DNA of 64,000 nt from Candidatus Woesearchaeota archaeon (lineage in GTDB: Archaea > Nanobdellota > Nanobdellia > SCGC-AAA011-G17 > GW2011-AR18). Under the pieces are notes generated by a model. That model was not told the DNA's origin. It searched no databases and saw nothing but the letters and a program-made list of their open reading frames with translations. This document shows, piece after piece, positions 1-16,535 of the stretch (position 1 is the first letter of the stretch; the number at the start of each line of letters is the position of its first letter). The stretch spans positions 24,534 to 88,533 of the forward strand of contig CAYSFG010000024.1 of NCBI GenBank assembly GCA_964430545.1. The letters are read 5' to 3'. Position numbers and translations under genes: made by a program.

Positions 1-870
1 TTGTTTATAAATATCTTTTATTTCTAAATCCTTTTCCTGCCCTGGGTATATTCCAACTCCTTCTACTATATCTCCTGTTACAAACAAATATCTAACTTTT
101 TTAGCAACTTCTCTTTGTTGTTCAGTACCATAATCTCCATTCAACCAGCTTAACATTTTATTAAAATCATTTGATATAAAATTCTTTATTCCGAAATGTA
201 TATCACTTATAAATACAGCATAAACTTCATCAGGTGATTTTTTTAATTCATGGTTTATAGGTATGTCTGGAAAAACAATTGAATTTACAAAAACAATCTT
301 ATCTCCCATTACACCTATTATTCCTATAACTTCATCTTTTAAAATATCTTTAGCAGAATCAAATAATTCTCCTTTGTTTTTTAAAACTAAAACATTTATC
401 ATTCCAGTTGGATCTTCTAATTTAAATATAATATTCCCATTTTTTGTTTCAGATTTTTCTAAAACCATACCTATTATACTAATACTCTCACCTTGATTTT
501 TTCTTTCCAATCTACTTATAGAAATACTATCTTGTAAAGATTGTCTATTAACTAAGATATCTCTCAATTTATCATATCTTTTTCTAAAATAATTTAAAAA
601 TGAACTTACTTCTTTTTTTTTTAAATTATCTACATAAGAAAATAAAACATTAACCCTTGCTTCACATTGTTCAATTTTTGGTTTTGCTAATACTATTGTT
701 TTTTTAAGAAAATTATTTGCGGGAATTTCTTGTTTAATTTTTTCTTTCACATTATTAAATTTTTCTAATGCAGTTTTATAATCTATTTCATCTGGTAATT
801 CTTCTAAAAAATCTGGACTTATTAATATTCCATTGTCTAAAAATGTTCTTAATACTTCTGTTTTGGTCAT
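1..870 (-). CDS. polB: DNA polymerase D small subunit DP1 (5' part, runs off the window; absent from ORF track)
   Basis: Manual translation from ATG at 870: MTKTEVLRTFLDNGILISPDF...FISDIHFG...YLFVTGDIVEGVGIYPGQ phosphoesterase motifs; frame stays open through an A10 run; directly downstream of cdc6. Confidence 0.93.
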   Translation of the reverse strand, partial: MTKTEVLRTFLDNGILISPDFLEELPDEIDYKTALEKFNNVKEKIKQEIPANNFLKKTIVLAKPKIEQCEARVNVLFSYVDNLKKKEVSSFLNYFRKRYDKLRDILVNRQSLQDSISISRLERKNQGESISIIGMVLEKSETKNGNIIFKLEDPTGMINVLVLKNKGELFDSAKDILKDEVIGIIGVMGDKIVFVNSIVFPDIPINHELKKSPDEVYAVFISDIHFGIKNFISNDFNKMLSWLNGDYGTEQQREVAKKVRYLFVTGDIVEGVGIYPGQEKDLEIKDIYKQ

Positions 871-882
871 TTTTTAATTTAA

Positions 883-2091
883 TCATAGATTTAAACTTTC
901 TTTTAATACTTGTTTTATAGTTAAAACATTTGTTTGTGGTATAGTTACTTTAATTTCCTTAGTTCTTCCATATCTTCCTTTGGATACTACCTTTGCATTT
1001 ATTATTCCTAACATATCTAATTCTACAATTATATCAGATATTCTTCTTTGAGTTAAATGTTTTAAACTTATTGATTTACAAAATTCTTTATAAACTTCAT
1101 ATACGTCTCCTGTAAATATTGGTTCATCTATTTTTTCTGATATGGTTAATATTGCTAATAATGCAAGTTGTGATTGTTTTGGTTGTGTTTTTGTTACTTC
1201 TAATATTTTATCTTTCTCAATTTTATCTTCAGCTTCATCTATATGTTCTAATTTTATTTCTATTTCTCCTTTTCTTTCTGCTAATTCACCTGCAACCCTT
1301 AATAATTCCAATGCTCTTCTTGCATCTCCATGTTCTCTCGCAGCATAAGCAGCACATTTTTCTATTACCCCTTCTTTTATTGTATTCTCTTTAAATGCAA
1401 TATTTGATCTTTGTCTTAATATATCTTGTATTTGTATTGCATTATATGGTGAAAAAACTAGTTCTTCTTCACTTAACGAACTTTTTACTCTAGGATCTAC
1501 ACCATCCATAAAAGATAAATCATTAGATATTCCAATTAATGATAATTCTACATTTTTTAGTTCTGAATTTATTCTTGTTAGATTATATAAAATTTCATCA
1601 CCTGCTTTTTTTACTAATTGATCAATTTCATCTAATATTAATATTACTAATTTTTTTTCTTCATCTATATGTTTTAAAAATATTTTATAAACTTCATCTG
1701 TTGGAAGACCAGTAGCAGGTATTTCCAAATCAAATTCTTTTGCTAATTGAACTATTAGTCTATATTCAGTATCTGCTACTCTTTTTAATTTACAATTAAT
1801 ATAAGCTATTTTTATAGGTAAATTTTTTTCCTTTGCAATTTTTATTATTTGTGAAGTTACATATTTTGTTACAACTGTTTTTCCTGTTCCAGTTATTCCA
1901 TATAAAAATAAATTTGATGGTTTTTCTAATCTTAACATAGGTGCTAAAATTCCAGCTATATAATTTATTTGTTCTTCCCTATGTATTATACTGCTAGGAG
2001 TATAATTTGATTGTAAAACTTTTTTATTTAAAAATAATGGTTCTTTGTTTAAATATCCTTGAAAAAATTCTGTTAATGAATCACCTTTCAT
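883..2091 (-). CDS. cdc6: Orc1/Cdc6 replication initiator
   Basis: Walker A GITGTGKT, Walker B ILDEID, GDARRAL sensor, C-terminal wHTH; GGGGTGA SD upstream. Confidence 0.97.
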   Translation of the reverse strand: MKGDSLTEFFQGYLNKEPLFLNKKVLQSNYTPSSIIHREEQINYIAGILAPMLRLEKPSNLFLYGITGTGKTVVTKYVTSQIIKIAKEKNLPIKIAYINCKLKRVADTEYRLIVQLAKEFDLEIPATGLPTDEVYKIFLKHIDEEKKLVILILDEIDQLVKKAGDEILYNLTRINSELKNVELSLIGISNDLSFMDGVDPRVKSSLSEEELVFSPYNAIQIQDILRQRSNIAFKENTIKEGVIEKCAAYAAREHGDARRALELLRVAGELAERKGEIEIKLEHIDEAEDKIEKDKILEVTKTQPKQSQLALLAILTISEKIDEPIFTGDVYEVYKEFCKSISLKHLTQRRISDIIVELDMLGIINAKVVSKGRYGRTKEIKVTIPQTNVLTIKQVLKESLNL

Positions 2092-2165
2092 TATATCACC
2101 CCTATATTATTATAAATAAAAATTAATTCATTTATAAGGATTATCATACTTGAAAATACACACTT

Positions 2166-2455
2166 ACACCATCATTTCTAGTGGAATTAAAAAGTAGTAA
2201 ATCTTTCCATTTTTTTGTAATTTATTACAACTTTTTTAATATTTCTTTTTACAAAAACAATATTTATATAACAATTATGATATAATATATATAATATAAT
2301 ATAGAAAAATTTATAAATAAAATATATAAAAAAGCAATTTTTAATAAAAATATAAATAAATACAATTTTAATATAGTTTTAGTCATTAATAAAAAAATTT
2401 CTATTAATATCTTCCATACGAAACTATAGGGGGTAGGTGCAGTGGAAACAATGGT
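2166..2455. promoter_or_regulatory. Probable replication origin oriC: ORB-like boxes around an AT-rich tract
   Basis: TTCCACTAGAAATGATGGTGT (minus, 2166-2186), TTCCATACGAAACTATAGGGGGT (plus, 2412-2434) and TGCAGTGGAAACAATGGT (2438-2455), flanking an almost pure A/T tract (about 2200-2410) upstream of cdc6. Confidence 0.75.
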
Positions 2456-2822
2456 TAAAAGTTTTAATTATTTTTTGTTTCTATTTTAATTAGTTTTATA
2501 AAAATTAGAGATATAGTACTTGATTTTAGAGGTTTAAAAGATTTATTGTTTGTTCTATTTTTAATGATTACTATTATTATCTAACATAAATTTACAGAAA
2601 ACTATTTTATTAATGATAAAGTGTTTTTTTTTAATAACAAAAGTGTCAAGGAATTTTAATCAGAAAATAAAATTGAAAAATTAAAAAGCAAAATAGGGTT
2701 ATTTTGTAAGAAAAAGTAAGCGTTTATTTCATTTGATTTTTACAGTTCATAAAAAAGTTAATTATAAAACTATTGTACTAAAACAATAATCTTTATAAAT
2801 AACTTATACTCTATTTATAATA

Positions 2823-3083
2823 ATGGATGAAGAAAAAAGATACTCAAAACAAATTGTAGGTAAAAAAGTTGTTTCAAAAACAGGTAAAGTTTTTGGTGAA
2901 GTTAGTAATATGATATTTGAAGTTCGTACAGGCGAAGTCTTACAACTTGTTCTAAGAAATACAACAGGTTATTGTGAAGGTTTAGATTTGGAAAGGACAA
3001 AACAAAATGAAGTTTTATTACCTTATACTGCTGTAGTTGCTTTGGGTGATTTTATTGTTGTAGCAGAAGAAGAAATAATTTAA
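2823..3083 (+). CDS. PRC-barrel domain protein
   Basis: IVGKKVVSKTGKVFGEVSNMIFE...VVALGDFIVV PRC-barrel pattern. Confidence 0.85.
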   Translation: MDEEKRYSKQIVGKKVVSKTGKVFGEVSNMIFEVRTGEVLQLVLRNTTGYCEGLDLERTKQNEVLLPYTAVVALGDFIVVAEEEII

Positions 3084-3194
3084 TTATGAAATTAACTAAA
3101 AGAATTTTTAACATTTCTTATGTAATAATTAAAGAACCAAAACATTCTAAGTTATATTCATAACCTTTTTATACTTTCTTTTATTCTTTATGAT

Positions 3195-5090
3195 ATGGTT
3201 GTTAAAAAATCTAATGAAGTTAAAGAATTAAATTTTAATAATACTTCAGAGATAAAAATTCCCAAAAATCTTTCAGAACAAATATTAGGTCAGGATCATG
3301 CAATAAATATTATTAAGAAAGCTTCTCAACAGCGACGTAATGTGTTATTAATAGGTGAACCTGGTACTGGAAAAAGTTTAATTGCTCAAGCTTTAGCAGA
3401 ATTATTACCCCCAACAAAATTAGTTGATATTTTATGTTTACCCAACGATCAAGATGAAAATAGTCCATTAATTAGGGTAATGCCTAAAGGTAAAGGTAAG
3501 GATCTTGTTACAAAACTTAAAATTCAAAATAATTCTATTTATAAAAACCAAAACATTATTTTTTTTATAGTTTTAATATTAACATTAATAACACCATGGT
3601 GGATTAGGAAACAATATGGTGATATTTTAGCAGCAGCTTCATTAATCGGTTCTATGATTTTTTTAGCTATCTTTGTAATTTTTATTAACTTAAATAGAAG
3701 AGTAAGTGTTAATAAAATAAAAATTCCTAAATTATTAGTAGATAATTCAGAACAAAAACTATCTCCATTTATTGATGCAACTGGTGCGCATACAGGTTCA
3801 CTGCTTGGTGATGTACTTCACGATCCACTCCAATCAGGAGGTCTAGGCACTCCAGCACATGAGCGTATAGTTTCAGGAATGTTGCACAAAGCTAATGGTG
3901 GTGTTTTATTTATAGACGAAGTTAGTTTATTAGATTACCATTCTCAACAAGAATTATTATCTGCCTTACAAGAAAAAAAATATAAAATTACAGGACAGTC
4001 AGAACGTTCTTCTGGTGCTATGGTTGCTACTGAACCAGTTCCTTGTGATTTTATTTTAGTTGCTGCTGGTAATCTTGAATCAATTGAAAAAATGCATCCA
4101 GCATTAAGATCTCGTGTTCGTGGTTATGGTTATGAAGTTTATATGAACGAAACTATGGATGATAATATTGAAAATAGAAATAAGCTAGCTCAATTTGTGG
4201 CACAAGAAGTTAATAAAGATAAAAAAATTCCTCATTTTACAAAAACTGCTGTTGATGAAATAATTAAAGAATCTCGTCGTATGGCTGGAATTGCAGGTAA
4301 GTTAACAGTAAGATTACGTGAGCTTGGTGGGCTTATTAGGGCTGCAGGCGATCTTGCTAGAGAAGATAATATTAAGATTGTTACTGAAGTTTATGTTAAA
4401 AAGGCTAAGTTATATGCTAGACCTCTTGAACAACAAATTGCTGATAAATATATTGAAAATAAGAAAAAGTATGAAGTTATTTTAACAGAAGGCAATAAAA
4501 TTGGTCGTGTAAATGGGTTAGCAGTTATTGGTTCAGGCGCCGCATTATCTGGACTTGTTCTTCCTATTGAATCTGAAGTTGTTCCGGGTGGCAACAAGGT
4601 AGAATTTGTAGCTACAGGAAAATTAGGAGAAATTGCTAAAGAGGCTGTTAAAAATGTTTCTGCTATAATTTTATCTATTTTTAAAGAGGACATAAAAAAG
4701 AAATATGATATTTATATACAATTCTTACAAACTTCTTCAAGTGGTGTTGAAGGAGATTCTGCATCTATTGCCGTTGCTACAGCAATTGTTTCTGCATTAA
4801 AAAAGGTTCCTATAAGACAAGATACTGCGATGACTGGTTCATTGTCTATTAGAGGAGATGTTCTTCCTATTGGGGGTATAACTGCTAAAGTAGAAGCAGC
4901 AATTTCAACAGGATTAAAACAAGTAATTATTCCTAGGTCTAACAAAGATGATTTAGTATTATCATCTGAACAACAAAAAAAAATTAAGATTATACCCGTA
5001 TCAAATATTATAGAGGTATTAGAACAGGCTATGTTGTGGGATGGTAAAGATGAGATATTAAAGAAAATTAAAAATTATAACCAAGAATAA
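3195..5090 (+). CDS. lonB: Archaeal membrane-anchored Lon protease LonB
   Basis: GEPGTGKS Walker A, two TM segments inserted in the ATPase domain, GDSAS catalytic Ser, PIGGITAK catalytic Lys. Confidence 0.96.
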
Positions 5091-5120
5091 TATAAACTTT
5101 AAAACAATTTTATATTCCTA

Positions 5121-5413
5121 ATGAAAAATAAAATTCTAGAACAAAAAAACAATTAATCACAGAAAAAAAAGAGGAGGACAAAATATTAGTTTATTATAAA
5201 ACAACATATCAAAATAGAAAATTAAAATCTGATAATTTCCAGCCAAAGAAAGTACTAGTACCAAAAATAATAAATCTCTCTAAAGAAATAGTCAAAATGA
5301 TAGGGTTATATCAGGGTGATGGGCAAAAATCAACAAAATCAAAAACTTATCAAGCAACAAGATTTACAAATTCAGAACCAGAATTAATAAGAAGGTTTTT
5401 AAGATTTTCATGA
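5121..5413 (+). pseudogene. Truncated, frameshifted LAGLIDADG-type endonuclease remnant
   Basis: Open frame 5132-5413 reads ...EIVKMIGLYQGDGQKSTK...RFTNSEPELIRRFLRFS*; ATG at 5121 joins it only through a -1 shift at A AAA AAC. Confidence 0.6.
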
Positions 5414-5471
5414 TATATATACATATTTTAGGAAATATTTTAAATTATATATTTTTATCAATTCTAGAACT

Positions 5472-5660
5472 TTAAAATTTTTCTAAAATTCCTAATCTCA
5501 ATTGTAATATAAAAACACTAAGTAAAGCATAAACTGCGATAATATAATTAATATTTTGTTTTAAAACTACAGTCATAATAAGGATTGGAAAAACGATAGA
5601 AAAAATAATTGATAAATATATCAACTGTTTTAGTCCTATTTTTATTTTTTCATTATCCAT
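5472..5660 (-). CDS. Small two-TM membrane protein
   Basis: ORF track; two hydrophobic segments. Confidence 0.55.
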   Translation of the reverse strand: MDNEKIKIGLKQLIYLSIIFSIVFPILIMTVVLKQNINYIIAVYALLSVFILQLRLGILEKF

Positions 5661-5720
5661 AAATTTATTAATAAGAACCAGTATATATCTTTAGAAGTAT
5701 ATTTTAAACAACACACTTTA

Positions 5721-6305
5721 TCATTCTATTTTTTCTTTTATATCCAACAATTTTTGTACTATTACATAAAATCTTTCAGCATTTATTTGTAATCCCAATT
5801 GTTTCATTTTTTTCATTAATTCCATTCCTTCTTCCCTTCCATTTATTTTTTGAAACTTAAACAATTCTTCTAGATATAAACTACAAATATATCCTCTTTT
5901 TTCATTTATTTTTGCTATAGCCTCATTTCCTTTAGAATGAACCATCAGTCTATTTAAATCAATTATTAAATCCCCACTAAGATAAACATTATCATTTTTC
6001 TTAAAATTAGAGTTTAATAATTCATATTCTATAAATTTTTTATAAATATCCTGAACAGCATTAGTTTCAACAAATTCTTCAAAATTTTCTCCCAAAAATT
6101 CTTCAAATGTATTAGTATATTCAGGTTTATAACGATAAACTCTTCCAACTTGTTTTATATATTTATGTTCTGGCCATTTGTTCATTCCTTTTCGTTTAGC
6201 TCTTTTTCTCCATTTAGAATTAACTAAGTATCCATATTCATACTCTTTTCCACTCTTTTTTTTTACTTTTCTCAACCTTAAAAACATGCTTTTAAAGTTG
6301 TACAC
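5721..6305 (-). CDS. Hypothetical basic protein with IS1634-like N-terminal beta motif
   Basis: MFLRLRKVKKKSGKEYEYGYLVNSKWR...YIKQVGRV; no DDE core visible; start may be ATG 6287. Confidence 0.65.
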   Translation of the reverse strand: MYNFKSMFLRLRKVKKKSGKEYEYGYLVNSKWRKRAKRKGMNKWPEHKYIKQVGRVYRYKPEYTNTFEEFLGENFEEFVETNAVQDIYKKFIEYELLNSNFKKNDNVYLSGDLIIDLNRLMVHSKGNEAIAKINEKRGYICSLYLEELFKFQKINGREEGMELMKKMKQLGLQINAERFYVIVQKLLDIKEKIE

Positions 6306-6557
6306 TATATAATATAAAAATCTGTCGTGTTCATTATATTGTAATTACACATTATAATAAAGAAATAACCTCTGGCACATTATTATTAAGGAAGGTACGA
6401 AAACAAAGTTTCTGTCAACACCCTATTATTTTTTTAAGTCTTTTTTGTATTATAAAATCTCATTATAATTAGTTTTCCGTTTTTTGTATTATAAAACCAT
6501 TTTTAATGTAAATTCATTTTTTCAATAAACTTTATTACTAACCTATATTCTATATCA

Positions 6558-8201
6558 TTGATGAACTTCAAACAAAATTTAACAGATATTATATCAAAAC
6601 AACTTAATCAATCAATCACGTTAGAAATCCCACCAGCAATAGAATTGGGCAATCTTGCTTTACATTGTTATAAATTGAAAATTCCTCCAGATCAAATGCA
6701 AAAGAAATTAATTTTACCAAAATATATAGAAAAAACAGAAATTAAAGGACCTTATTTAAATTTTTTTATAAATAAATCTTATTTTACAAAATCAGTAATA
6801 GAATCTATTCTAAAATTAAAAGATAAGTACGGCTCAAACAATTTAGGTAAAAATAAAAAAGCCTTAGTTGAGCATACATCTATTAATCCTAATGCTTCTC
6901 CTCATGTAGGTCGTGCTAGAAACGCAATTATTGGTGATTTTATAGTAAGATTATTGAAATTTGAAAATTATAAAGTAGAAACCCATTATTATGTTAATGA
7001 TATAGGTAAACAGATAGCAATGTTGGTCTTAGCCTGTAATAAAAAAAAGCCATCTTTCAATTCATTGCTTCAATTATATATAGATTTTAATAAAAAATTA
7101 GAAAATAATCAAGAATTAGAAAAAGAAGTTTTTAATTTACTAAATAAATTAGAATCAGGTAATAAAAATATTATAAAACAGTTTCACGATGTAGTTAACA
7201 TTTGTATTAAGGGGCAATCTAAAATTTTATCTGATCTAGATATTAAATATAATTTTTTTGATTTTGAGTCTAAGTTTTTATTTGATGGTTCAACAAATAG
7301 AATTTTAAAACAATTAGAAAATAAAGGAAGGTTATTCAAAGATAAAGATGGAAGAACAGCAATTAATTTAGAAGGGTTTAATTTACCTATGGAAAATCCT
7401 TATTTACCATTAACAAGGGCAGACGGTACAAGTTTATATTTAATTAGAGATATTGCATATACTATTTTTAAAGATAATAAGGCTAAAGATAAGAATATTG
7501 TCGTGCTTGGTGAAGATCAAAAGTTATACTACTTACAATTAAAAGCTATCCTTTCATTATTAAATTATAAAGCTCCAGAAGTCGTTCATTATTCTTTTAT
7601 TTTATTATCTTCAGGCAAAATGTCTACAAGAAGAGGTGAAGTCGTTTTATTAGAAGATTTTATGAAAGAGGCTTTTTTCAAAGCCCAAGAAGAGATTATT
7701 AAAAGACACGGAAAAATTAAAAATATTAATAGATTATCCAAACAAATTGCTTATGGTGCCGTTAAGTTCGCTATACTTAAGGTTTCTCCAGACAGGAATA
7801 TAATTTTTGATTTGGAAAAAGCGTTAAGTTTCGAAGGTGATTCAGCACCATATATTCAATATGCCTATGCTAGAGCAAATTCTATATTAAAAAAAGTAAA
7901 ATCTAAAAAATTAAAGTTAGATTTTAATTTACTTAATTCAAAAGAAGAACTTTTATTATTGTCAAAACTAGCAGAATTCCCAGAGATAATAAACACATCT
8001 ATAAAAAATTTACAACCCCATATACTTACTTTTTATTGTTTAGATATTGCTAAATTATTTAATGAGTTTTATCATTCTTGTTCAGTATTATCTTCTAAAA
8101 ATAGTATTAAACAAATAAGATTAAAACTAGTTGAATCAACTCAAATAATATTAAAAACTTCTTTAAATTTATTAGGAATTGATGCTCCAGAGAATATGTA
8201 A
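6558..8201 (+). CDS. argS: Arginyl-tRNA synthetase
   Basis: EHTSINPNASPHVGRARN (HIGH-like), KMSTRRG, YIQYAYARANSIL, DALR anticodon domain. Confidence 0.96.
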   Translation: MMNFKQNLTDIISKQLNQSITLEIPPAIELGNLALHCYKLKIPPDQMQKKLILPKYIEKTEIKGPYLNFFINKSYFTKSVIESILKLKDKYGSNNLGKNKKALVEHTSINPNASPHVGRARNAIIGDFIVRLLKFENYKVETHYYVNDIGKQIAMLVLACNKKKPSFNSLLQLYIDFNKKLENNQELEKEVFNLLNKLESGNKNIIKQFHDVVNICIKGQSKILSDLDIKYNFFDFESKFLFDGSTNRILKQLENKGRLFKDKDGRTAINLEGFNLPMENPYLPLTRADGTSLYLIRDIAYTIFKDNKAKDKNIVVLGEDQKLYYLQLKAILSLLNYKAPEVVHYSFILLSSGKMSTRRGEVVLLEDFMKEAFFKAQEEIIKRHGKIKNINRLSKQIAYGAVKFAILKVSPDRNIIFDLEKALSFEGDSAPYIQYAYARANSILKKVKSKKLKLDFNLLNSKEELLLLSKLAEFPEIINTSIKNLQPHILTFYCLDIAKLFNEFYHSCSVLSSKNSIKQIRLKLVESTQIILKTSLNLLGIDAPENM

Positions 8202-8246
8202 TTTAAATACAATAAACTTTATATACTTTAGATTTTGCTAAAGTTT

Positions 8247-8657
8247 ATGCCAGTAATAGGATTTAATTTCACAAAATTACATATAGCCAAGAAGGAAGAG
8301 TTTAGACCGGGATTTGAATTTTCTAGTAATGTAACAATTACAAAAGTAGAAGAAAAAGAATATAATCTTTCTAAAGATGAAACTTTAGCTCTATTTGAAT
8401 TTGAGTTTAATATAGGGTATGATAAAGCTGGTTCTATAAATATAGATGGCAAAGTGACTTATTTAGGATCAAAAAAAGAAGTTAAAGAAGTAGTTGAAGG
8501 TTGGAAAAAAGATAAGACCATGGATTCAATTATCTTAAAGATTGTTCTTAACACAATTTTGTATAAATCTAATGTGAGGGCTCTTGAGATGTCCGAGCTT
8601 GTAGGCCTTCCAGCACCATTTAATCTACCATTTATTAGAGATGAAGAAAAGAAATAA
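8247..8657 (+). CDS. Conserved archaeal SecB-like fold protein
   Basis: MPVIGFNFTKLHIAK...INIDGKVTY...GLPAPFNLP pattern; ATG 8247 preferred over TTG 8235. Confidence 0.6.
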   Translation: MPVIGFNFTKLHIAKKEEFRPGFEFSSNVTITKVEEKEYNLSKDETLALFEFEFNIGYDKAGSINIDGKVTYLGSKKEVKEVVEGWKKDKTMDSIILKIVLNTILYKSNVRALEMSELVGLPAPFNLPFIRDEEKK

Positions 8658-8729
8658 TTAAACTTCTATTTTTAAATAGGTATTCTACAATCCAATAATA
8701 CTTTTTAAGTTAATTAAACAAATAAAGTC

Positions 8730-9503
8730 ATGACAAATCAAAAATTAATAAAAGAAGCATTTCTAAGGGTAAAAAAAGATATCTTAATATTAGAAAAAGA
8801 GAATTTAACACTTAAAAACCAAATTTCTAGCCAAAATGAATCCTTTTTTAAGATTAAGGGGGTTTTAAGTGAGATTTTAAATGCCCTAAAAGAGTTAAAA
8901 GAAGCTAAAAAGGAAGTTTCCAGTGGAAATGATGGGGTTAATCAATCAATCAATCATTTAATCAATCAATCAATCAATCAATCAAACACTAATCAATCAT
9001 TTAATCAATCAAATGAACCCTTAGGTGAGTTAGAATCACCTATAACCCCAATTAAACATGATTTTAAGCTTGATAATCAAAAAATATTTAATACAGTTTC
9101 TAATCAATCAATCAATCAATCAATCACTAATCAATCATTTAATCAATCAATCAATCACTCAGATCCTAATTTTCAAGCTCTAAGAACAAATTTAGAAGGA
9201 GTTTTTAGACTTTTATCTAAACAAGAACTAAAACTTTTTCTTACAATATACCAATTAGAAGATGAGGGAAAAGAACCATTTTATACTGCAATATCCTCGA
9301 AGATGGGGCTTTCTGAGCATTGTATTAGGAGTCATTTGTTCTCACTTTTCAAAAAAAATGCCCCATTATATAAAAAGCGCCTTAACAATAAAAGGAATAT
9401 TATCCACATAAAACCAGATTTTAAGGCTTTAAACTTAAAACAAAAACTTATTGGAATTTATTATGATTCAGATCCACATCAAACCACACTTTTTGACATT
9501 TAA
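8730..9503 (+). CDS. Coiled-coil / NQSI-repeat / C-terminal winged-HTH protein containing an internal ORB box
   Basis: N-terminal heptads, two NQSI tracts, LSKQELKLFLTIYQL...YTAISSKMGLSEHCIRSHLFSL HTH. Confidence 0.8.
   Translation: MTNQKLIKEAFLRVKKDILILEKENLTLKNQISSQNESFFKIKGVLSEILNALKELKEAKKEVSSGNDGVNQSINHLINQSINQSNTNQSFNQSNEPLGELESPITPIKHDFKLDNQKIFNTVSNQSINQSITNQSFNQSINHSDPNFQALRTNLEGVFRLLSKQELKLFLTIYQLEDEGKEPFYTAISSKMGLSEHCIRSHLFSLFKKNAPLYKKRLNNKRNIIHIKPDFKALNLKQKLIGIYYDSDPHQTTLFDI
8918..8938 (+). promoter_or_regulatory. ORB-like box inside a coding sequence
   Basis: TTCCAGTGGAAATGATGGGGT; 18/21 identical to the cdc6-proximal box and close to the archaeal ORB consensus. Confidence 0.7.
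8940..9014 (+). repeat. AATC tetranucleotide array 1
   Basis: (AATC)4 ATTT (AATC)6 AAAC ACT (AATC)2 ATTT (AATC)2 AAAT. Confidence 0.95.
9102..9156 (+). repeat. AATC tetranucleotide array 2
   Basis: (AATC)6 ACT (AATC)2 ATTT (AATC)4. Confidence 0.95.
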
Positions 9504-9835
9504 AAACCTTATTTTATCTTCATTTTTTCAATTTTAATCGTTGTAAACAAATTTTTTAGTATAATTTCAATAATTTCCTTTTAATCAATAAATTTTATTC
9601 TCACTTATGAGATTTTTCAATTTTTTTTTAACTTCTTTATAATTATTTTCTATAATTTTATTGTTTTTTGTGCTATATTAAAATTTAAATATCACTTTTT
9701 TATATCTCACTTTTATAAAATTAATATATCTTTAGTATTATTTTTTTAAATTTTATACTTTTTTCAACAAATACCAAATTTTTACGTTTTTTTATTAAAA
9801 CATTCAATTTTTTTTGTCTAAATTAAATAAAAACC

Positions 9836-9993
9836 GTTCACCTACTGTTCACCGAACCGTTCGGTGACGTCACCTACGTTTACCGAACCGTCCGATAACT
9901 ATCAATAAAATAGGTTATAACATGGTATAAACATAAATTATTTTTCCAATAAAAAAGGATTGTTCGGTAAGTTCACCGAACGGTTCGGTGAAC
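9836..9993. repeat. Phased palindromic GTTCACCGAAC-type array (candidate protein-binding sites)
   Basis: Six half-sites at 9836-9899 forming two roughly 32-bp units, plus three at 9961-9993 including perfect GTTCACCGAAC-G-GTTCGGTGAAC. Confidence 0.9.
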
Positions 9994-10041
9994 AATAAAA
10001 ATTAGTAAACTATAAGAATAAGTATTAATACAAAATAATTA

Positions 10042-10653
10042 ATGGGTGTATTCAGTTTTTTATTTAAAAAAAAGAGTGACGAAGAGCACATAGTAAGAAT
10101 TAATAATAGTTTAAAAGGTTCTTTCTCAAATATTAAAACAGATATGCTACATTTACATAAAACTATTTCTAATCATACAATTCACACTTCAAAAAAATTT
10201 CAGGAAATAGAAGAAAGTATCAAGCGTATGGAGTTAGTTTTAGCTACATTAAATTATCAATCTAAAAAACCATTTAAAGAACCATTAACTATTACACCTA
10301 TTAAAATAGAAGAAGAAATTGAAGAATCAGATCATAATGATATTTTAACAGTACTTAATGGTATACCTCACGCAGAACTTAAGTTATTTAAAACAATTTA
10401 CGATCTTCAACTAAACCTAAATACTAAACATATTTCTTACAAATCATTAGCAAGTTATTTATATCCTGGAAAAGATTATAATTCTATAAGATCCACAATT
10501 ACCCAATTTGTTTTAAGATTACATACTGAAGGGCTTATTGAAAAACAAAGGATAGGTAAGGAGACTTATGTTTGTACAAGTAATCACGGTAATAAAATAT
10601 TAAAAGATGTGAGAATTAAAAGAATAATAAAAGATATAACACTCAAAGATTAA
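10042..10653 (+). CDS. Coiled-coil / C-terminal winged-HTH protein
   Basis: IPHAELKLFKTIYDL...SYKSLASYLYPGKDYNSIRSTITQFVLRLHTEGLIEKQRIGKETYV; shares ELKLFxTIYxL with the 8730 protein. Confidence 0.8.
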   Translation: MGVFSFLFKKKSDEEHIVRINNSLKGSFSNIKTDMLHLHKTISNHTIHTSKKFQEIEESIKRMELVLATLNYQSKKPFKEPLTITPIKIEEEIEESDHNDILTVLNGIPHAELKLFKTIYDLQLNLNTKHISYKSLASYLYPGKDYNSIRSTITQFVLRLHTEGLIEKQRIGKETYVCTSNHGNKILKDVRIKRIIKDITLKD

Positions 10654-11227
10654 ATCTTTTATTTACAATTTCCCAATCTATATTTTCAAAAAAGATTTTA
10701 ATATAATCCGTTTTATTAGTTCCATAATCAAGCATAAAAGCATGTTCAAATACATCCATCACCAATAAAGGAATTCCTCCTGCTAAATGCCCTCCATCAT
10801 GTTCATTTATCCACACATTACATAATCTTTTTGATTCTTGATCTAAATATAATATAACCCACCCTATTCCCCTAATAGTGCCAGTTCCTTTAAAATCTTT
10901 TTCCCAATTTTCATAATTTTCAAAATCTTCCTCTATTTTTTTAAATATTTTTGTATTTTGATCTAACTTTTTCCCTTTTTTTGTTAAATTTTCAAAATAA
11001 TATTCATGTAATCTCATTCCATTAAATTCCCAACCAAATCTTCTTTTAAGTTCTGCAAATTCTGGTGTTGCTATTTTTCCTTCTTTTGTCATATTTTGTA
11101 AGATGTTTAATAATTTATTTATATTTGTTACATATCCATTGTATAATGCAAAATGTAGTTTTAATAGATTATCACTTAATCCATTTATTCCTAATAGATT
11201 TGAAAAATCTTTTGTTTTATATTCCAT
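10643..11227 (-). CDS. sod: Fe/Mn superoxide dismutase family protein
   Basis: LHFALYNGYV, FNGMRLHEYYF, DVFEHAF motifs. Confidence 0.92.
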   Translation of the reverse strand: MEYKTKDFSNLLGINGLSDNLLKLHFALYNGYVTNINKLLNILQNMTKEGKIATPEFAELKRRFGWEFNGMRLHEYYFENLTKKGKKLDQNTKIFKKIEEDFENYENWEKDFKGTGTIRGIGWVILYLDQESKRLCNVWINEHDGGHLAGGIPLLVMDVFEHAFMLDYGTNKTDYIKIFFENIDWEIVNKRFNL

Positions 11228-11323
11228 ATTAATATCACAACTTTGATTAGTTATAATTATTTATATCTGTTTCTATATAGTTTATATGATTAAACTATTT
11301 AATCATTAATTATAAATTTATTA

Positions 11324-11388
11324 CTTATCGTCGATAAGATAAATCATCGTCGGTAAATAGAAAACTATATAAATAAGCTCGTCGATAA
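11324..11388. promoter_or_regulatory. Operator-like TCGTCGRTAA repeats around a TATA box
   Basis: Copies at 11328, 11347 and 11379; palindrome CTTATCG-T-CGATAAG at 11324-11338; TATATAAA at 11366-11373. Confidence 0.65.
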
Positions 11389-11433
11389 GATAAAATATTA
11401 TATTAATTAATTAAAAAAAGGAGGTGAAAATAA

Positions 11434-11556
11434 ATGGGGAAAATAATAGTAAAAAATGCAATTCAACGTAAGAAAGGATTCTTATATTATGTTGATGGCC
11501 AGGGAAATGTCTGCGAAGCAGCTATGGCACGTGGGGGTAAAAAGAAGAGAAGATAA
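11434..11556 (+). CDS. 40-aa basic protein, single-module Cc1-like chromatin protein (below ORF-track cutoff)
   Basis: MGKIIVKNAIQRKKGFLYYVDGQGNVCEAAMARGGKKKRR; strong SD GGAGGTGA at 11420; R-x-x-G-aromatic-L-Y-Y-x-D/G motif typical of Cc1. Confidence 0.75.
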   Translation: MGKIIVKNAIQRKKGFLYYVDGQGNVCEAAMARGGKKKRR

Positions 11557-11802
11557 TTATATTTTAACTTCTTAGTTTTTTTCTTTATTTTTTCTTTTTA
11601 ATTTAATTAAACTAGTTAATAAAAAACAGGATATTATTTTCACATTCATTTTAGTTATCAAAAAGTTAATATTAGCTTAGCTAAAATTTTAGATAATACA
11701 AATAAGTAAATAATCTAAAATTAGCAAGAAATCATGTATTAAATAATTTTAATATTTAATTTAATAACCTTTTAAGAAGTTTATAATAGAAGGTAGATAC
11801 TT

Positions 11803-11940
11803 ATTACTCCAGAAAAATATAAAATTTCAGTAGATTCAATAGAAGATTCAATATTTTTAAAAAAGGGTACAGAAAGACAATAAGACTTACAAGATATAAA
11901 AATACTTAAAAAAATAAAGGAACACAAATATAAAAAATAA
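11803..11940 (+). pseudogene. Nucleotidyltransferase-like C-terminal remnant
   Basis: SIEDSIFLKKGTERQ*DLQDIKILKK with an in-frame TAA where the K of an RxKD-like motif is expected. Confidence 0.4.
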
Positions 11941-12332
11941 TTGTTTTTTAGAGATAGATAATATTTAAGAGATTGTTATAGGTTTGCTCATATGGGTGTT
12001 TTTCTTACGTTTAACAAAAAGGGGGAATTATTAAAATTTTTTCAGATGACATAAAAAACAAATTACAAGGAACAGGTACAATATTTCAGATAAATCATAT
12101 CTACCTAAATCATCAAAATAACTCAAAAGATTATCTTTAAAAATTAAACTATTTCATTAGCCTTTAAACAAATTTTACTATATATATCACTAAAAAGGGT
12201 ATTAATAATGTTATTCTATAATTGTAATGGGGCTTTCTGAAAATATTGTAATATTTTTTGTTTTTTCTTAATTGATTAGTGCATCTTTTTATTTTTTCTT
12301 TAGTTTTTTTTAGTTAAATAAGTAATGTTTTA

Positions 12333-12469
12333 CACTTAGGGATACAATTTATATTGTTAAAACCAAAGTTTAATTAATACTTAAAGATTTTGAGCAAATT
12401 TTATATAAATTTGTGCACTAAGGGAGCCCTAAGTTAATAAAAATAGTAAAATATATAACCCTAAGTGCA
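12333..12469. promoter_or_regulatory. res-like inverted half-sites upstream of the recombinase
   Basis: CACTTAGGG 12333-12341, GCACTAAGGG-AG-CCCTAAGT 12415-12434, CCCTAAGTGCA 12459-12469. Confidence 0.55.
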
Positions 12470-12477
12470 TAAACAAT

Positions 12478-13245
12478 ATGAAAAAGATGGTAAACAAACC
12501 CTTAGCAGCAATTTATATAAGAGTTTCAACTGAAGAACAAGCCTTGCACGGATTTTCTTTGGCTGGACAAGAAGATACACTAAAAAATTATTGTTCTGCT
12601 TTAGGATACGAATTATTAAAAGTTTATAGAGATGAAGGGAAATCTGCAAAAGATATTAAGAATAGGCCTGCAATGAACGAGCTTCTAAAAGATGCAGAGA
12701 GTAAGAAATTCTCAGCAATATTTATTTACAAATTAGATAGGTTTTCAAGAAGCTTAAAAGATTTAATCCTAACTATAGAAAAATTAAAAGAATGGGGAAT
12801 AGATTTTATTTCCTTACAAGATAGAGTAGAAACTGCTTCTGCTTCTGGGAAACTAATGTTTCATATAATCTCTGCTTTTGCAGAATTTGAAAGAAATATT
12901 ATAGGAGAAAGAACAATTTTTGGAATGGAAAGAAAATCAAAAGAGGGCGGAGCAATAACTAAAGCGCCATTTGGTTATAAAATGATAGAAAAAGCATTAA
13001 AAGTGGATCTTGAAAAAGCTATACAACTTAAACAGATATATGAAGATTTTTTGAATATGTCTATAAGCCTAAATAAGTTAGCAATAAAAAACAATTTAAG
13101 TGTTAATGGTCTTAAGAAAATATTAAAAAATAGGGCGTATTTAGGAGAAGTAAAATTTGCAGGAAAGAATACTAAAGGAATACATGAACCGATATTAACT
13201 GAGGAATTATTTGATAAAGTACAAGAAAAGATGAGAAATTTTTGA
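12478..13245 (+). CDS. Serine recombinase (resolvase catalytic domain plus short recombinase domain)
   Basis: AIYIRVSTEEQ catalytic Ser, DEGKSAK, YKLDRFSRS, EFERNIIGER, APFGY, ILKNRAYLG. Confidence 0.93.
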   Translation: MKKMVNKPLAAIYIRVSTEEQALHGFSLAGQEDTLKNYCSALGYELLKVYRDEGKSAKDIKNRPAMNELLKDAESKKFSAIFIYKLDRFSRSLKDLILTIEKLKEWGIDFISLQDRVETASASGKLMFHIISAFAEFERNIIGERTIFGMERKSKEGGAITKAPFGYKMIEKALKVDLEKAIQLKQIYEDFLNMSISLNKLAIKNNLSVNGLKKILKNRAYLGEVKFAGKNTKGIHEPILTEELFDKVQEKMRNF

Positions 13246-13334
13246 AATGAAACTAAATAATTTAATCTTTTATTAGAATATTGAATCTTACAATTTTCAT
13301 AAAATTTTCTAAAGCTTTTAAACAAATGTATTCA

Positions 13335-13439
13335 ATGACTTATAAATCAAGATCCAAAATTTATAACATTGGAAAAGCAGAATTAATTGAATTATATATT
13401 TATGAGAAAAAAGCAACTAGAAAAATTTCTAAGAATTGA
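13335..13439 (+). pseudogene. Degenerate HTH-like fragment
   Basis: MTYKSRSKIYNIGKAELIELYIYEKKATRKISKN*, followed by interrupted sequence. Confidence 0.3.
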
Positions 13440-13535
13440 AGATTTCCAAGATGGCAATAGATATATTTAATTAAATTTAGATAAAGAAAAGAGTCAGAAG
13501 AATGCATTATAAAATTGAGAAAACAAATCCGAATA

Positions 13536-13604
13536 AATAAAGATTTTATTTTTTGATTAAAAGTTGTACACTATTAAAAATAAAGATTTTATTTTTTGAT
13601 TAAA
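13536..13604 (+). repeat. 26-bp direct repeat, two copies
   Basis: AATAAAGATTTTATTTTTTGATTAAA at 13536 and 13579. Confidence 0.85.
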
Positions 13605-13980
13605 TATTATAATTATATAAACTAATCAAATATTATGATAATAAATTAAAGATTATAATCAAAGAATTATTGCTAAATAAATTAAATTTTAATATCAAAG
13701 ATTAAATTATTTAAGCATTAACTTAATACTAAAATAGCCATAACTTATAACTAAAAACTAAATATTTTAATCCTAAATTACAACCTTAAATATATACTTC
13801 ATAATATATAATAAATAATATCATTAATAAAATACAAAATAGTTAACATACTTAATAAAATAGTAGTTATAAGATATATAATAAAAACTATAATTAAACT
13901 TTTAAAATTGATTTTAAAATTAAAAAGTGAGAGTTAATTTATTAAAAAGCTTTATTAAAAATAAAAATATAATTTTTACT

Positions 13981-14190
13981 ATGAAATTATCAAAAAAAAT
14001 TTTAAGAGATGAAATAAAAAGAATGAATGCTTCTATTTCTCAATTATCTAAAATATCAAAAAGAAAAATTGATTTAAATAAATGTTTAAAATGCAAACAA
14101 GATGCAGGCAAAAATTTTATCTTCTCTTATAAAAAAAATAATGAATTAAAAGGAAAAGTTTGTATTAGTTGTTATAAAAATAATTTATGA
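13981..14190 (+). CDS. Small CxxC...CxxC zinc-finger protein
   Basis: CLKC and CISC; ATG 13981 preferred over GTG 13927. Confidence 0.5.
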   Translation: MKLSKKILRDEIKRMNASISQLSKISKRKIDLNKCLKCKQDAGKNFIFSYKKNNELKGKVCISCYKNNL

Positions 14191-14916
14191 TTCATATTTT
14201 ATATAATAAATTAATATCCCAATAAATGCAACAATAAATGCAATTATTATTTCTAATAATAATCCATATTTTAAAAATAAGAAACTTATTATTACAAAGA
14301 TTAGAGTAAATAACCATAATATTATAGATCCAAAAAATATTTTACTTCCGTCTAAATTAGATAAAGGTAATAAGCTAAACAAAGCCATATAAAAATTTAT
14401 TTTAGTAAAGTTTACAAGATTTATACCTAATGATTTTGATATTAATATAGCTATTACAACTAATAATACATGTGTTATTACCCCACTTAGGACTATTAAT
14501 GCTTCTTCAAAATATTCTAAGAATATTTTTTTGTTTCCTGTTCTTGCAACTAATTTTTCTTTTAGTTCATGTATTCCTATTGCTGTAAAAAAGAATTTTC
14601 CTTTTGATATAAATATAAACAATATAGCCAGTATAATTCCCATAGGGATTCCTTTTTTTATTTTTCCATATCCCCCAAACCATATTCTGTTTATATTCCA
14701 AATTTGGTAAATGCTTTCAACATTTTTGCTTAGTGCAACTAATTTTATTACCCCTTCTCTTATTAGTATTGATATAGCAACTAGAAAAATTATTTTTAAT
14801 AAATTAATTAGCCAGTCTTTTAATATAAATGTTTTTGCTCCGTCATCAAATCCGAACATTAATCCTAATAATATTATAGAAATTCCTAAGTCTCTTATCT
14901 CTTCCAGTTTAAACAT
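14185..14916 (-). CDS. M50/site-2-protease-like membrane protein lacking HExxH
   Basis: Multi-TM; FSLLPLSNLDGSKI matches the NxxPxxxLDG motif, but the HExxH position reads IREGV. Confidence 0.65.
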   Translation of the reverse strand: MFKLEEIRDLGISIILLGLMFGFDDGAKTFILKDWLINLLKIIFLVAISILIREGVIKLVALSKNVESIYQIWNINRIWFGGYGKIKKGIPMGIILAILFIFISKGKFFFTAIGIHELKEKLVARTGNKKIFLEYFEEALIVLSGVITHVLLVVIAILISKSLGINLVNFTKINFYMALFSLLPLSNLDGSKIFFGSIILWLFTLIFVIISFLFLKYGLLLEIIIAFIVAFIGILIYYIKYES

Positions 14917-15035
14917 ATTATTTATATATTATATTTATATTTAATGTTTTCTAAATTATAGACTAGTATAGGATCATTTTAGTTTTAATAATTACGGTTA
15001 ACATTTATAAATAATAAAAAATTTCATTATCTGAT

Positions 15036-15868
15036 ATGAAAACTAAAAATTATTTTCCTAATATAAATCATTTAATAAAGCAAAATAGGAGTTTTGTAGA
15101 CGTAGCTAAAAACAAAATATATTATAAAGAAATTTCTGAAATATATGAATTAGTGTGTTCAAGAAATAAACAAACTAAGGAGGAAGTTATATTCTTAAAA
15201 AAATTTATTGAAAAAAACTGCAAAGGAAAAAAAGTATTAGATCTCGCATGTGGTGTGGGTAGGCATTCACGAGAATTTTCAAAATTCGGGTTTGAAACAT
15301 TTGGTATAGACCAATCCAGAAGTATGCTTAAAATAGCTAAAAAGCTAGACCCAATTACAATTTATAAATACTCAGACATTAGAAATTTTTATCTAAAAAT
15401 TAAAATTGATACAGCTTTCTGTTTATGGACAGCTTATAATTATTTATCAACAAAAGATGATTTTTTAGATTTTATAAGTTGTGTGCATAATTGTTTAAAA
15501 CCAAATGGTTTTTTGATATTAGAATCTAATAATTTTTTTAAAAATCAGATAAATTAAATTTTAGAAGAAGATTACATGAAAATCAAGATTATAAAATTGA
15601 ATTGTTTATTCGAAAAAGTATCGATCTTAAAAATAAAATACAAGATGCAATATATGTTTACTTAATCTTGGATAAGAAAAGCGGGAAAACATATTCTTCA
15701 ATAGACACTGAATTAGTTAAGATATACTCTAAAAACGATATTGAAAGATTAACAAAAGATAAATTTAAAATTTATAAAATATTAGGCGGTTATTCAAATT
15801 TTCCTTACAATAAGAATAATTCTGATAGAATGATATTTATTTTCTGTAAAATAAATAATATTTTATAA
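15036..15868 (+). pseudogene. Class I SAM methyltransferase split by a -1 frameshift
   Basis: VLDLACGVGRH in 15036-15557; the -1 frame is open from the T7A5 run (15533-15544) through ORF 15602-15868. Confidence 0.75.
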
Positions 15869-15902
15869 ATTCATGAATTTGAGTTTTTTATATCACAAAT
15901 TA

Positions 15903-16535
15903 TTATTTATTATAAGTAATGTAATGATTAGTTATTTTGTCTCTAATAAAAGCTAATCCTTTTGTATTATTTATCCATATTGCTATACCGTCAACTTTTT
16001 TTGTGCAACTTGAAGTATTTTGTAATTCAAAATTATTTCTGCTTGTTATCATTACTACATCTTGTGATGTAACTATTAATTCATTTAATTCATTAAATAA
16101 ATGTTTTACTGAAAAGCTTATAATATATTTATTGTTAATTGTTTCTTGTCCATTTTGGTTATATAATACATAATGGCCTGTTGTAGGGCTTTTTTTGAAG
16201 ATATAATTATTTAGGTTTGTATCTTGGAATAAAACAATACTTGATGTTGGAGTCCCTCTTCTATCCCCAAGTGCTAAATTTCTTCCATTTGTTGATTCTA
16301 TTATTACTACACTTTGTATTGTAAAAAGTCTAGCAGTATCATCTCTATTATATAAATCCAAAAAATCAACTCTTACGCTATAATTATCAAATTCTATAAG
16401 ATTTGGATGGCAATATGTAGTCTGTTGTCTTTGCAATGTAAAAAACCCTGTTAAAAAATTTGCCGAAACAATTTGTATTGATAAAAACAAAATTAATAAG
16501 AATGGTATAATAATCTTTGTTTTTAATTTTTTCAT
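15903..16535 (-). CDS. Secreted hypothetical protein
   Basis: N-terminal signal peptide. Confidence 0.65.
   Translation of the reverse strand: MKKLKTKIIIPFLLILFLSIQIVSANFLTGFFTLQRQQTTYCHPNLIEFDNYSVRVDFLDLYNRDDTARLFTIQSVVIIESTNGRNLALGDRRGTPTSSIVLFQDTNLNNYIFKKSPTTGHYVLYNQNGQETINNKYIISFSVKHLFNELNELIVTSQDVVMITSRNNFELQNTSSCTKKVDGIAIWINNTKGLAFIRDKITNHYITYNK

Follow-up and report, generated by a model that had tools for sequence, protein, structure and literature searches.

A dual-coded origin recognition box as a probable accessory Orc1/Cdc6 site in an origin-linked winged-helix regulator gene of DPANN archaea

The archaeal initiator Orc1/Cdc6 is generally held to act almost only at replication origins, and to our knowledge little is known about the control of initiation in archaea, particularly in the uncultured, minimal-genome DPANN archaea. 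In oriC1-type origins of Sulfolobus, Pyrococcus and Aeropyrum, the canonical origin recognition box (ORB) consists of the dyad TTCCA-NN-GGAAA and a G-string (PMC4010727), and in Pyrococcus one full ORB binds Cdc6 with high affinity in vitro (PMC1904270). In the Thermococcales, a cluster of ORBs and mini-ORBs lies inside dp1, the gene for the small subunit of PolD, and is bound by Cdc6/Orc1 in vivo as strongly as oriC (Matsunaga et al. 2007, PMC1904270). Here, we analyzed 64,000 nucleotides (the window) from a Candidatus Woesearchaeota archaeon (GCA_964430545.1, contig CAYSFG010000024.1, positions 24,534 to 88,533), in which an open reading frame (ORF) at 8730..9503 on the plus strand encodes a 257-amino-acid protein with a coiled coil and a winged helix-turn-helix (wHTH) domain. 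This gene contains a full ORB, TTCCAGTGGAAATGATGGGGT (8918-8938, plus strand), which is read in frame as (V)SSGNDGV and is followed by two arrays of tetranucleotides. With a probability of about 0.7, we consider the box to be an accessory Orc1/Cdc6 site that shares its DNA with the code for a protein linker, in a conserved coiled-coil/wHTH regulator gene linked to the origin.

This arrangement is similar to the dp1 cluster in that ORB-type boxes are found in a coding gene, a few kilobases from oriC and orc1/cdc6, and in that the arrangement is conserved, in the case of dp1 within an order; the function of the dp1 cluster is still unknown. The two differ in several respects. Here, the gene usually has a single full ORB and not a cluster, encodes a wHTH regulator and not a polymerase subunit, and is located across oriC from cdc6. 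Its conservation extends over a whole DPANN radiation (653 clusters at 50% identity), selection at the DNA level is evident from codon and reading-frame tests, and 4-nt tracts are attached to the box. The dp1 boxes, in turn, are bound in vivo, whereas the in-gene box described here is a predicted binding site. Of the pattern searches with ORB3 of Pyrococcus dp1, one was without a match and a shorter one gave a chance bacterial match; no claim is drawn from them.

The in-gene box is composed of the dyad TTCCAGTGGAA(A), the spacer TGAT and the G-string GGGGT (8934-8938). The ORB dyad core TTCCA-N2-GGAA(A) is present as TTCCAGTGGAAA at 8918-8929, and the G-string is 3' of the dyad, its GGG being invariant in 55 of 55 genes. 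When the 64 kb were scanned with up to three mismatches, the sole other match was TTCCACTAGAAATGATGGTGT (2166-2186, minus strand), the box next to orc1/cdc6, which is identical at 18 of 21 positions to the box encoding SSGNDG, exactly as stated in an initial annotation of this DNA; 100 dinucleotide-preserving shuffles contained no match. Furthermore, a weight matrix made from in-gene boxes was run over both strands of 60 loci (938 kb); 59 species-representative genomes had yielded loci. Apart from 62 in-gene matches there were 42 elsewhere, about 37 of which are located 14-394 bp upstream of orc1/cdc6, and in 27 loci the matches outside the gene form inverted sets around an AT-rich spacer. In their layout, these sets upstream of orc1/cdc6 are classic inverted ORBs around a predicted unwinding region. 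The exact pattern TTCCANNGGAAATNANGGGGT was found at 120 loci or more in a scan of 185,579 species genomes; among the matches listed, 76 of 80 titles are archaeal and cover many phyla, including Methanomicrobia, Thermoplasmatota, Asgard, Thermoprotei and Hadesarchaea, and many matches are less than 500 bp from orc1/cdc6. Moreover, the first 15 nt of the window box are the reverse complement of Pyrococcus ORB1 (sequence as in PMC1904270). In view of the pan-archaeal matches and the identity with Pyrococcus ORB1, the box belongs to the pan-archaeal ORB class, and the proposal of an ORB-type motif stands.

With the canonical ORB, the in-gene copy thus shares the dyad, the G-string and a motif class that also occurs at the cdc6-adjacent origin. 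Unlike the canonical ORB, it is located in coding DNA and does not belong to a group of inverted boxes that flank an unwinding region. The G-string also differs, being GGGGT in the gene and a doubled GGTGT(N)GGTGT in the oriC ORBs of the clade. The fit to the ORB pattern is better in the gene than at the origin. In the window, the in-gene box has no mismatch to the 17 specified bases of the pattern and the best oriC copy has 2. In the 27 loci with both, the mean number of mismatches is 0.41 for the in-gene box and 2.78 for the best oriC copy, the in-gene box being better in 25 loci and equal in 2, a comparison that is partly circular because the pattern was made from in-gene boxes and that has its independent anchor in the pan-archaeal matches only. 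The best oriC copies have 1-6 mismatches of 17, compared to 5-8 in random 620-nt windows. No co-variation of in-gene and oriC boxes was seen at the two central bases of the dyad, and these bases therefore look unconstrained.

Some loci have additional copies. In L024 and L039, the dyad half of the box is tandemly duplicated at about 10141-10182 (GTTCCACAGGAAATCA-GTTCCACAGGAAATCAAGGGGTC), and L072 and L148 have two full in-gene boxes that are 43 nt apart. L011 has a strong ORB copy on the same strand, AGTTCCATAAGAAATCAAGGGGTA (10962-10985), 146 bp downstream of the gene; it has the top matrix score outside the gene and may be a relocated copy. The in-gene box of L011 is slightly degenerate (GGAAAAAAT).

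Since the box is translated, the peptide S-x-G-N-x-G-V together with a low-complexity linker, or an element of the mRNA, might be what is conserved, the likeness to an ORB being coincidental. Indeed, the motif is present in 84% of the family (117 of 139 full-length representatives of 50%-identity clusters), and the box is always on the coding strand. The codons speak against this explanation. In a codon alignment of 58 genes, the proteins of which are 30-55% identical, the motif serine is encoded by TCC in 54 of 55 genes (TCC makes up 7.7% of the serine codons in the loci), the first glycine by GGA in 53 of 56 and the second glycine by GGG in 55 of 55 (background, 15%), whereas four to six synonymous codons occur for each of the invariant leucine, arginine, serine, threonine and proline residues of the wHTH domain. 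A comparison of synonymous sites in the SSGNDG codons with the rest of the gene, as suggested in the initial annotation, thus finds codons frozen in the box and free in the wHTH domain. Almost all genes have T as the third codon base immediately before the motif, although the residue encoded there can be V, I, S, F, G, A, D or N, and the conserved DNA thereby extends to (A/G)(G/T)T TCCA. The second motif residue (S, T or I, encoded by AGT, ACN or ATN) falls on the unconstrained dyad center. In 56 distinct sequences, the information content is near 2 bits over the box and 0-0.4 bit in the flanks (30 nt before the box).

The reading frame itself is not fixed. At least two lineages read the box in another frame: L025 and L048 have kept AAGTTCCACAGGAA(A/G)(T/C)GAAGGGGTC but translate it one frame over as VPQE(M/A)KGSS, so that the DNA is retained and the peptide is lost, and further protein clusters have VPQEIMG, VPQEVKG or PVEMKG at the same place. 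Because synonymous sites are frozen on rare codons, the preceding T is constant under varying residues and the frame is shifted in L025 and L048, selection acts on the DNA; by these measures the box is dual-coded and under purifying selection for its nucleotide sequence, and the earlier proposal of dual coding with selection on DNA and not on the peptide is borne out. In addition, the motif is found in both orientations in noncoding oriC DNA. An mRNA element has no Rfam match in positions 1-16000, and since the sequence downstream of the box is not conserved across lineages, no common RNA fold is possible. Conservation at the peptide level is effectively refuted by the codon and reading-frame evidence, and a peptide or mRNA element with a coincidental ORB is extremely unlikely.

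The predicted structure of the protein indicates how the gene accommodates the box. In an AlphaFold model with 58 homologues as input, the 257-residue protein has an N-terminal coiled coil, a disordered linker and a C-terminal wHTH domain. The N-terminal part is one long helix (residues 2-63, encoded by 8733..8918 on the plus strand; predicted local distance difference test [pLDDT] score, 89-98; helix according to DSSP). The linker, residues 64 to 145 approximately, is unstructured, with pLDDT values below 50 at residues 83-140. Residues 146-247 (9165..9470, plus strand; pLDDT, 87-97) form the three-helix bundle and beta wing of a wHTH fold, with helices at 146-161, 164-178, 185-192 and 196-208 and strands at 213-218 and 222-227. 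Nearly all of the top 50 Foldseek hits are wHTH regulators of the ArsR/SmtB or MarR type (probability, 0.97-1.00; E value, ~1e-3), and the coiled coil plus wHTH domain that had been read from the sequence is thus recovered by structure prediction. When the model is mapped on the gene, the box and both arrays occupy exactly the stretch that codes for the linker. Such a linker tolerates almost any peptide, and therefore a DNA site can be dual-coded in it.

No Pfam or NCBIfam family was above threshold for the 257-amino-acid protein of the window. Other family members gave sub-threshold Pfam matches only, to DnaD_N in 14 of 58 and also to HTH_11, HTH_36 and GerE, and a sequence search of the PDB with the window protein returned weak coiled-coil proteins only and no family match. 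An initial search gave 80 homologues, which are labelled Woesearchaeota or Nanoarchaeota, and a profile search of 1.84 billion cluster representatives (E <= 1e-10) gave the 653 clusters mentioned above. By homology, the gene is a member of a large DPANN family (Woesearchaeota/Pacearchaeota/Nanoarchaeota). The homologues have the motif S[S/T/I]GN.GV followed by NQSI, YSFIHSF, KQAS, QTNK, RASE, SLTH or RQTD/PTDRQ peptides; the initial annotation had suggested S(T/S)GNxGV followed by other peptides of a 4-nt period, such as TDRQ, for DPANN homologues, and this is correct.

These peptides are encoded by the tracts that follow the box. Array 1 begins one base after the G-string and has the structure (AATC)4 attt (AATC)6 aaacact (AATC)2 attt (AATC)2 (8940-9012, plus strand); it encodes NQSINHLINQSINQSNTNQSFNQS, and Tandem Repeats Finder assigned to it a period of 4 and 18.5 copies. 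Array 2, which was also found with this program, is (AATC)6 act (AATC)2 attt (AATC)4 (9102-9161, plus strand). Parsing gave the 14 and 12 AATC units counted previously and a gap of 89 nt between the arrays. They are the only tetranucleotide tandem arrays of at least four units in the 64 kb. The only other exact AATCAATCAATC of the window is an (AATC)3 in argS (6606-6617), read LNQSIT, which is probably due to chance. The higher-order pattern (AATC)6..act(AATC)2 attt(AATC)n is real in both arrays, but the contention that slippage could not have produced it is not supported: many homologues have two complete modules, with a second IGNEGV+NQSF module at the position of array 2, and thus duplication of the whole module of box and array explains the shared pattern best. 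By comparison with these homologues, array 2 is most likely a duplicated module whose own box was lost in the lineage of the window.

The tracts are periodic well beyond what the peptides require. Of 77 distinct in-gene boxes, 62 are followed by 48 nt with a 4-nt self-match of 0.5 or more, with 1 of 77 upstream windows and 2 of 385 wHTH-coding windows as controls. The mean periodicity of the tracts is 0.62, compared to 0.43 for the same peptides back-translated with background codon usage, and 70 of 78 tracts are above their own back-translation expectation. Serine is encoded by TCA in 72% of the cases in the tracts (background, 28%) and isoleucine by ATC in 47% (background, 12%). The excess over back-translation argues that the repeat is a DNA repeat. 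The unit changes with the lineage (AATC, ATTC, AGAC, AAAC, AAGC, ACTC, ACGC or GAGC) while the period of 4 nt stays, which was one of the tests proposed in advance. Each unit is a single-base neighbor of others, and this fits one ancestral tract in which mutated units were spread by slippage. Other periods are rare: 15 nt in L038, L042 and L052, 11 nt in L056 and L092, and 12 nt in L068 and L178. Whichever of the three frames is used, a repeat of 4 nt is translated into the same tetrapeptide, and the tract thereby frees the box from a fixed frame; in the lineages with an alternative frame, the tract is still read as YSFIHS or NQSI and the wHTH domain is back in frame.

Bacterial DnaA-trios are repeats with a period of 3 that abut initiator boxes in the origin, and here, too, a short-period repeat directly abuts an initiator-type box. 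The period is 4, however, the register after GGGGT varies between lineages, the unit is not conserved, and the oriC ORBs of the same genomes, the true origin boxes, have no 4-nt tracts. Among the pan-archaeal matches listed, periodicity is present in 16 of 22 within homologues of the gene and in 2 of ~110 outside them, both of which are homopolymer-rich. Hence, ORBs in general are not accompanied by such a tract; it belongs specifically to the copy within the gene. Because origin ORBs lack tracts and the register is not fixed, a track like the DnaA-trios is unlikely; some units are, moreover, 75% G+C (GAGC, ACGC), and the suggestion that the repeats serve as an unwinding or single-stranded-DNA-binding track is not supported. 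The persistence of such a tract in a coding region suggests a possible additional role at the DNA level, as a spacer or a slow on/off switch.

Tetranucleotide repeats within ORFs are typical of the contingency loci of Haemophilus and Neisseria, for example (CAAT)n in lic1A, where long and perfect tracts are hypervariable among isolates. (CAAT)n and (AATC)n denote one and the same repeat, and a change by one unit would likewise shift the downstream frame. The tracts might thus be a switch for the wHTH domain, which would be turned on or off when slipped-strand events add or remove units, with the box being incidental or a modulator of slippage. This possibility would account for a period of 4 and not 3 that is kept in a coding region across lineages, and some tracts have 7-9 perfect units. 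In line with the effect predicted in the initial annotation, one natural split allele maps to an array: in L060 (GCA_053532595.1), the gene is split into ORFs of 94 and 152 amino acids, and the frame changes within the first AATC tract. The contigs of L008 and L031 end at the box or array. Another candidate frameshift allele, P0068, was rejected because it is a read-end fragment of P0119.

Other data speak against a contingency switch. About 84 of 85 loci are in frame. The tracts are short and interrupted and not long and perfect; in 77 tracts, perfect runs are at most 9 units long and the median of the longest run per tract is 4, the runs in the window being 4, 6, 6 and 4. Protein lengths are uniform within 90%-identity clusters (196 amino acids in 7 members, 216 in 13, 199 in 10 and 247 in 4), with the limit that consensus assemblies hide minority alleles, and the sole length difference among the full-length members read is an in-frame 12-nt indel between P0083 and P0005. 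Identical proteins recur on 24-34 contigs, and the interruption pattern NQSINHLINQSI is common to homologues that are ~50% identical. A switch also leaves the frozen box unexplained. By this sequence evidence, slippage occurs, the ON frame is maintained, and the tract is mostly not a fast switch. A contingency switch is accordingly an unlikely explanation of the locus.

The gene has a conserved position next to the predicted origin. In the window, orc1/cdc6 (883..2091, minus strand; NCBIfam NF001625, 531 bits; Pfam Cdc6_C and Cdc6_lid) is followed by a 730-bp AT-rich intergenic region (2092..2822), the predicted oriC, which contains the ORB TTCCACTAGAAATGATGGTGT at the intergenic edge, ~75 bp upstream of the orc1/cdc6 start codon, and a weak inverted mini-ORB, TGCAGTGGAAACAATGG (~2437-2453, plus strand). 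The same layout was found in 26 further loci, with the minus-strand boxes 14-120 bp and the plus-strand boxes 246-394 bp from the orc1/cdc6 start. The order orc1/cdc6 (opposite strand), oriC, g86, lon, argS, g140, the gene, g203 is kept in most loci. Across the loci, orc1/cdc6 is 5.5-7.5 kb upstream of the gene with 4-6 genes in between (~6.6 kb in the window), and the in-gene box is ~6-7 kb (about 6.7 kb in the window) to one side of oriC. No homologue of the 257-amino-acid protein was found on the viral contigs searched. Conserved synteny and the lack of a viral homologue make this a chromosomal, origin-linked core gene of this DPANN radiation; a viral or plasmid origin module was considered and is unlikely, as there are no homologues on viral contigs.

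Could the gene itself contain a second origin, or part of a firing origin, with initiation at the in-gene ORB and the tracts as the unwinding element? The precedent is the origin of phage lambda, which lies in the segment of the O gene that codes for a flexible interdomain linker and consists of iterons and an AT-rich region bound by the O product. Here as well, a replication cis-element would be within the linker-coding segment of a DNA-binding protein, the ORB is full and highly canonical, and a long AT-rich intergenic region (9504-9830) follows the gene. Unlike lambda, though, the gene has no origin architecture, and its one box would be for a cellular initiator that acts in trans. An oriC has two or more inverted ORBs flanking an AT-rich unwinding element; at the gene there is a single ORB or tandems in the same orientation, none of the 60 loci has an inverted partner, and the downstream copy of L011 is on the same strand. 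The polarity is opposite as well, since the G-string points toward the downstream AT-rich spacer, while at oriC the dyads face the spacer. In addition, the tracts are not consistently AT-rich and the initiator gene is not adjacent but 6.6 kb away. Without an inverted partner, with opposite polarity and with some GC-rich units, an independent origin, as had been envisaged, is very unlikely. GC skew over 16 kb tracks gene orientation; it is too coarse to resolve 6 kb and uninformative for the origin.

Of the two neighbors of the gene, g140 (8235-8657), which has no family match, is beside the gene in 52 of 60 loci, and g203 (10042..10653, plus strand), which encodes a coiled coil and a wHTH domain but has no box or arrays, is beside it in 46 of 60; the three are a conserved triad near argS, lon and the origin. 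g203 and the gene have the motif ELKLF.TIY.L in common (E = 0.016), and g203 is possibly, judged by this similarity, a distant paralogue. The very AT-rich spacer of ~540 bp between them (9504-10041) contains three copies of a GC-rich palindrome, GTTCACCGAAC-N-GTTCGGTGAAC (9847-9867, 9878-9898 and 9971-9991), and 28 of 60 loci have perfect palindromes of 16-20 nt at the same spot that are lineage specific (CGTCGAACGTTCGACG, TTGGACACGTGTCCAA, TCGTAGACGTCTACGA, TCACTGACGTCAGTGA). They resemble operator sites of one of the two wHTH proteins that have evolved along with it.

These palindromes bear on a further possibility, namely that a protein other than Orc1/Cdc6 binds the box, either the gene's own product or g203, in which case the box would be an autoregulatory operator or a centromere-like site comparable to parS in spo0J/parB. 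The gene does encode a DNA-binding wHTH protein with a dimerizing coiled coil, the box has dyad symmetry, and it is close to the origin. If the box were such a site, one would not expect the same motif to form inverted ORB sets at orc1/cdc6, nor to be pan-archaeal and present in phyla that do not have the gene family. Since the motif is pan-archaeal and the separate, lineage-variable palindromes resemble wHTH operators, binding by the own wHTH protein is less parsimonious, and we regard another binder as rather improbable.

Taken together, we infer that Orc1/Cdc6 binds the in-gene box as a non-origin site. Orc1/Cdc6 bound within the gene could act as a roadblock and couple transcription of the regulator to initiator occupancy, or it could extend the initiator-bound domain around oriC, like the Thermococcales dp1 cluster; the most likely roles would be expression coupling, domain extension or both. 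The tracts would then be short, imperfect microsatellites derived from one ancestral tract that form the rest of the linker, and they would buffer the frame relation between the box and the wHTH domain.

A number of points weigh against an accessory Orc1/Cdc6 site. The box is degenerate or absent in ~10-15% of the family (L004, L006, L021 and L050 among them), and the site is therefore not indispensable. The need to encode G-N-x-G-V might itself help to hold GGGGT, and the 17-base comparison carries the circularity noted above. An accessory site does not account for the 4-nt tracts, which it does not require and which are absent at oriC ORBs. datA and DARS are clusters of DnaA boxes away from the origin that modulate initiator availability, and the in-gene box is likewise an initiator-type site away from the origin; it differs from datA in being a single site, which has little titration capacity. 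In P. abyssi, isolated mini-ORBs elsewhere were unbound in chromatin immunoprecipitation on microarrays (PMC1904270); the in-gene copy is a full ORB. A more far-reaching version, according to which box and tract are a replication-control element specific to Nanoarchaeota/Woesearchaeota, with the strongest Orc1/Cdc6 site of the genome, a feedback loop between initiator and regulator in one dual-coded 21-bp site, through which initiator occupancy would control regulator production and the reverse, and a tract that serves as a platform for spreading of the Orc1 AAA+ protein or as a slow heritable switch, is tentative and on balance doubtful.

Further observations concern the surroundings. In L010, L011, L024, L036 and L039, the lon homologue was matched in two pieces that are 0.7-2.5 kb apart, and lon may thus have been interrupted, for example by an intein or a mobile element. 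An ORF for a resolvase-like serine recombinase is located at 12478-13245, 3 kb downstream of the gene, and L060 has a tyrosine integrase (4461-5312) at the matching position. Traffic of mobile elements beside the conserved origin block is possible. At 41114-41195, the window contains a perfect tandem duplication of 42 nt (CAACTGCAACTACAATTGCAACAACTACTGAATCAACCCCAA x2) with internal sub-periodicities of 6, 12 and 21 nt.

What is already known is that Thermococcales have intragenic, origin-proximal ORBs bound by Cdc6. A search of the literature on DPANN archaea and Woesearchaeota for ORBs or tetranucleotide repeats did not find a description of the element; a 2026 preprint on Nanobdellota mentions a core wHTH regulator but no ORB. 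New are the conservation at the scale of a phylum, the formal demonstration of dual coding, the fit of the in-gene box to the pan-archaeal pattern above that of the origin copies and the accompanying 4-nt tract. Selection on DNA has preserved the site while the surrounding protein has diverged to 30% identity, and its host, a single-copy regulator gene, stays linked to the origin; this points to an accessory initiator site that has not been described before. It is an unusually clean natural case of overlapping DNA and protein codes and gives a concrete handle on initiator binding outside origins. Moreover, it extends the unexplained ORB cluster of dp1 to a second, distant lineage, which raises the possibility that archaeal origin regions in general have accessory ORBs inside genes.

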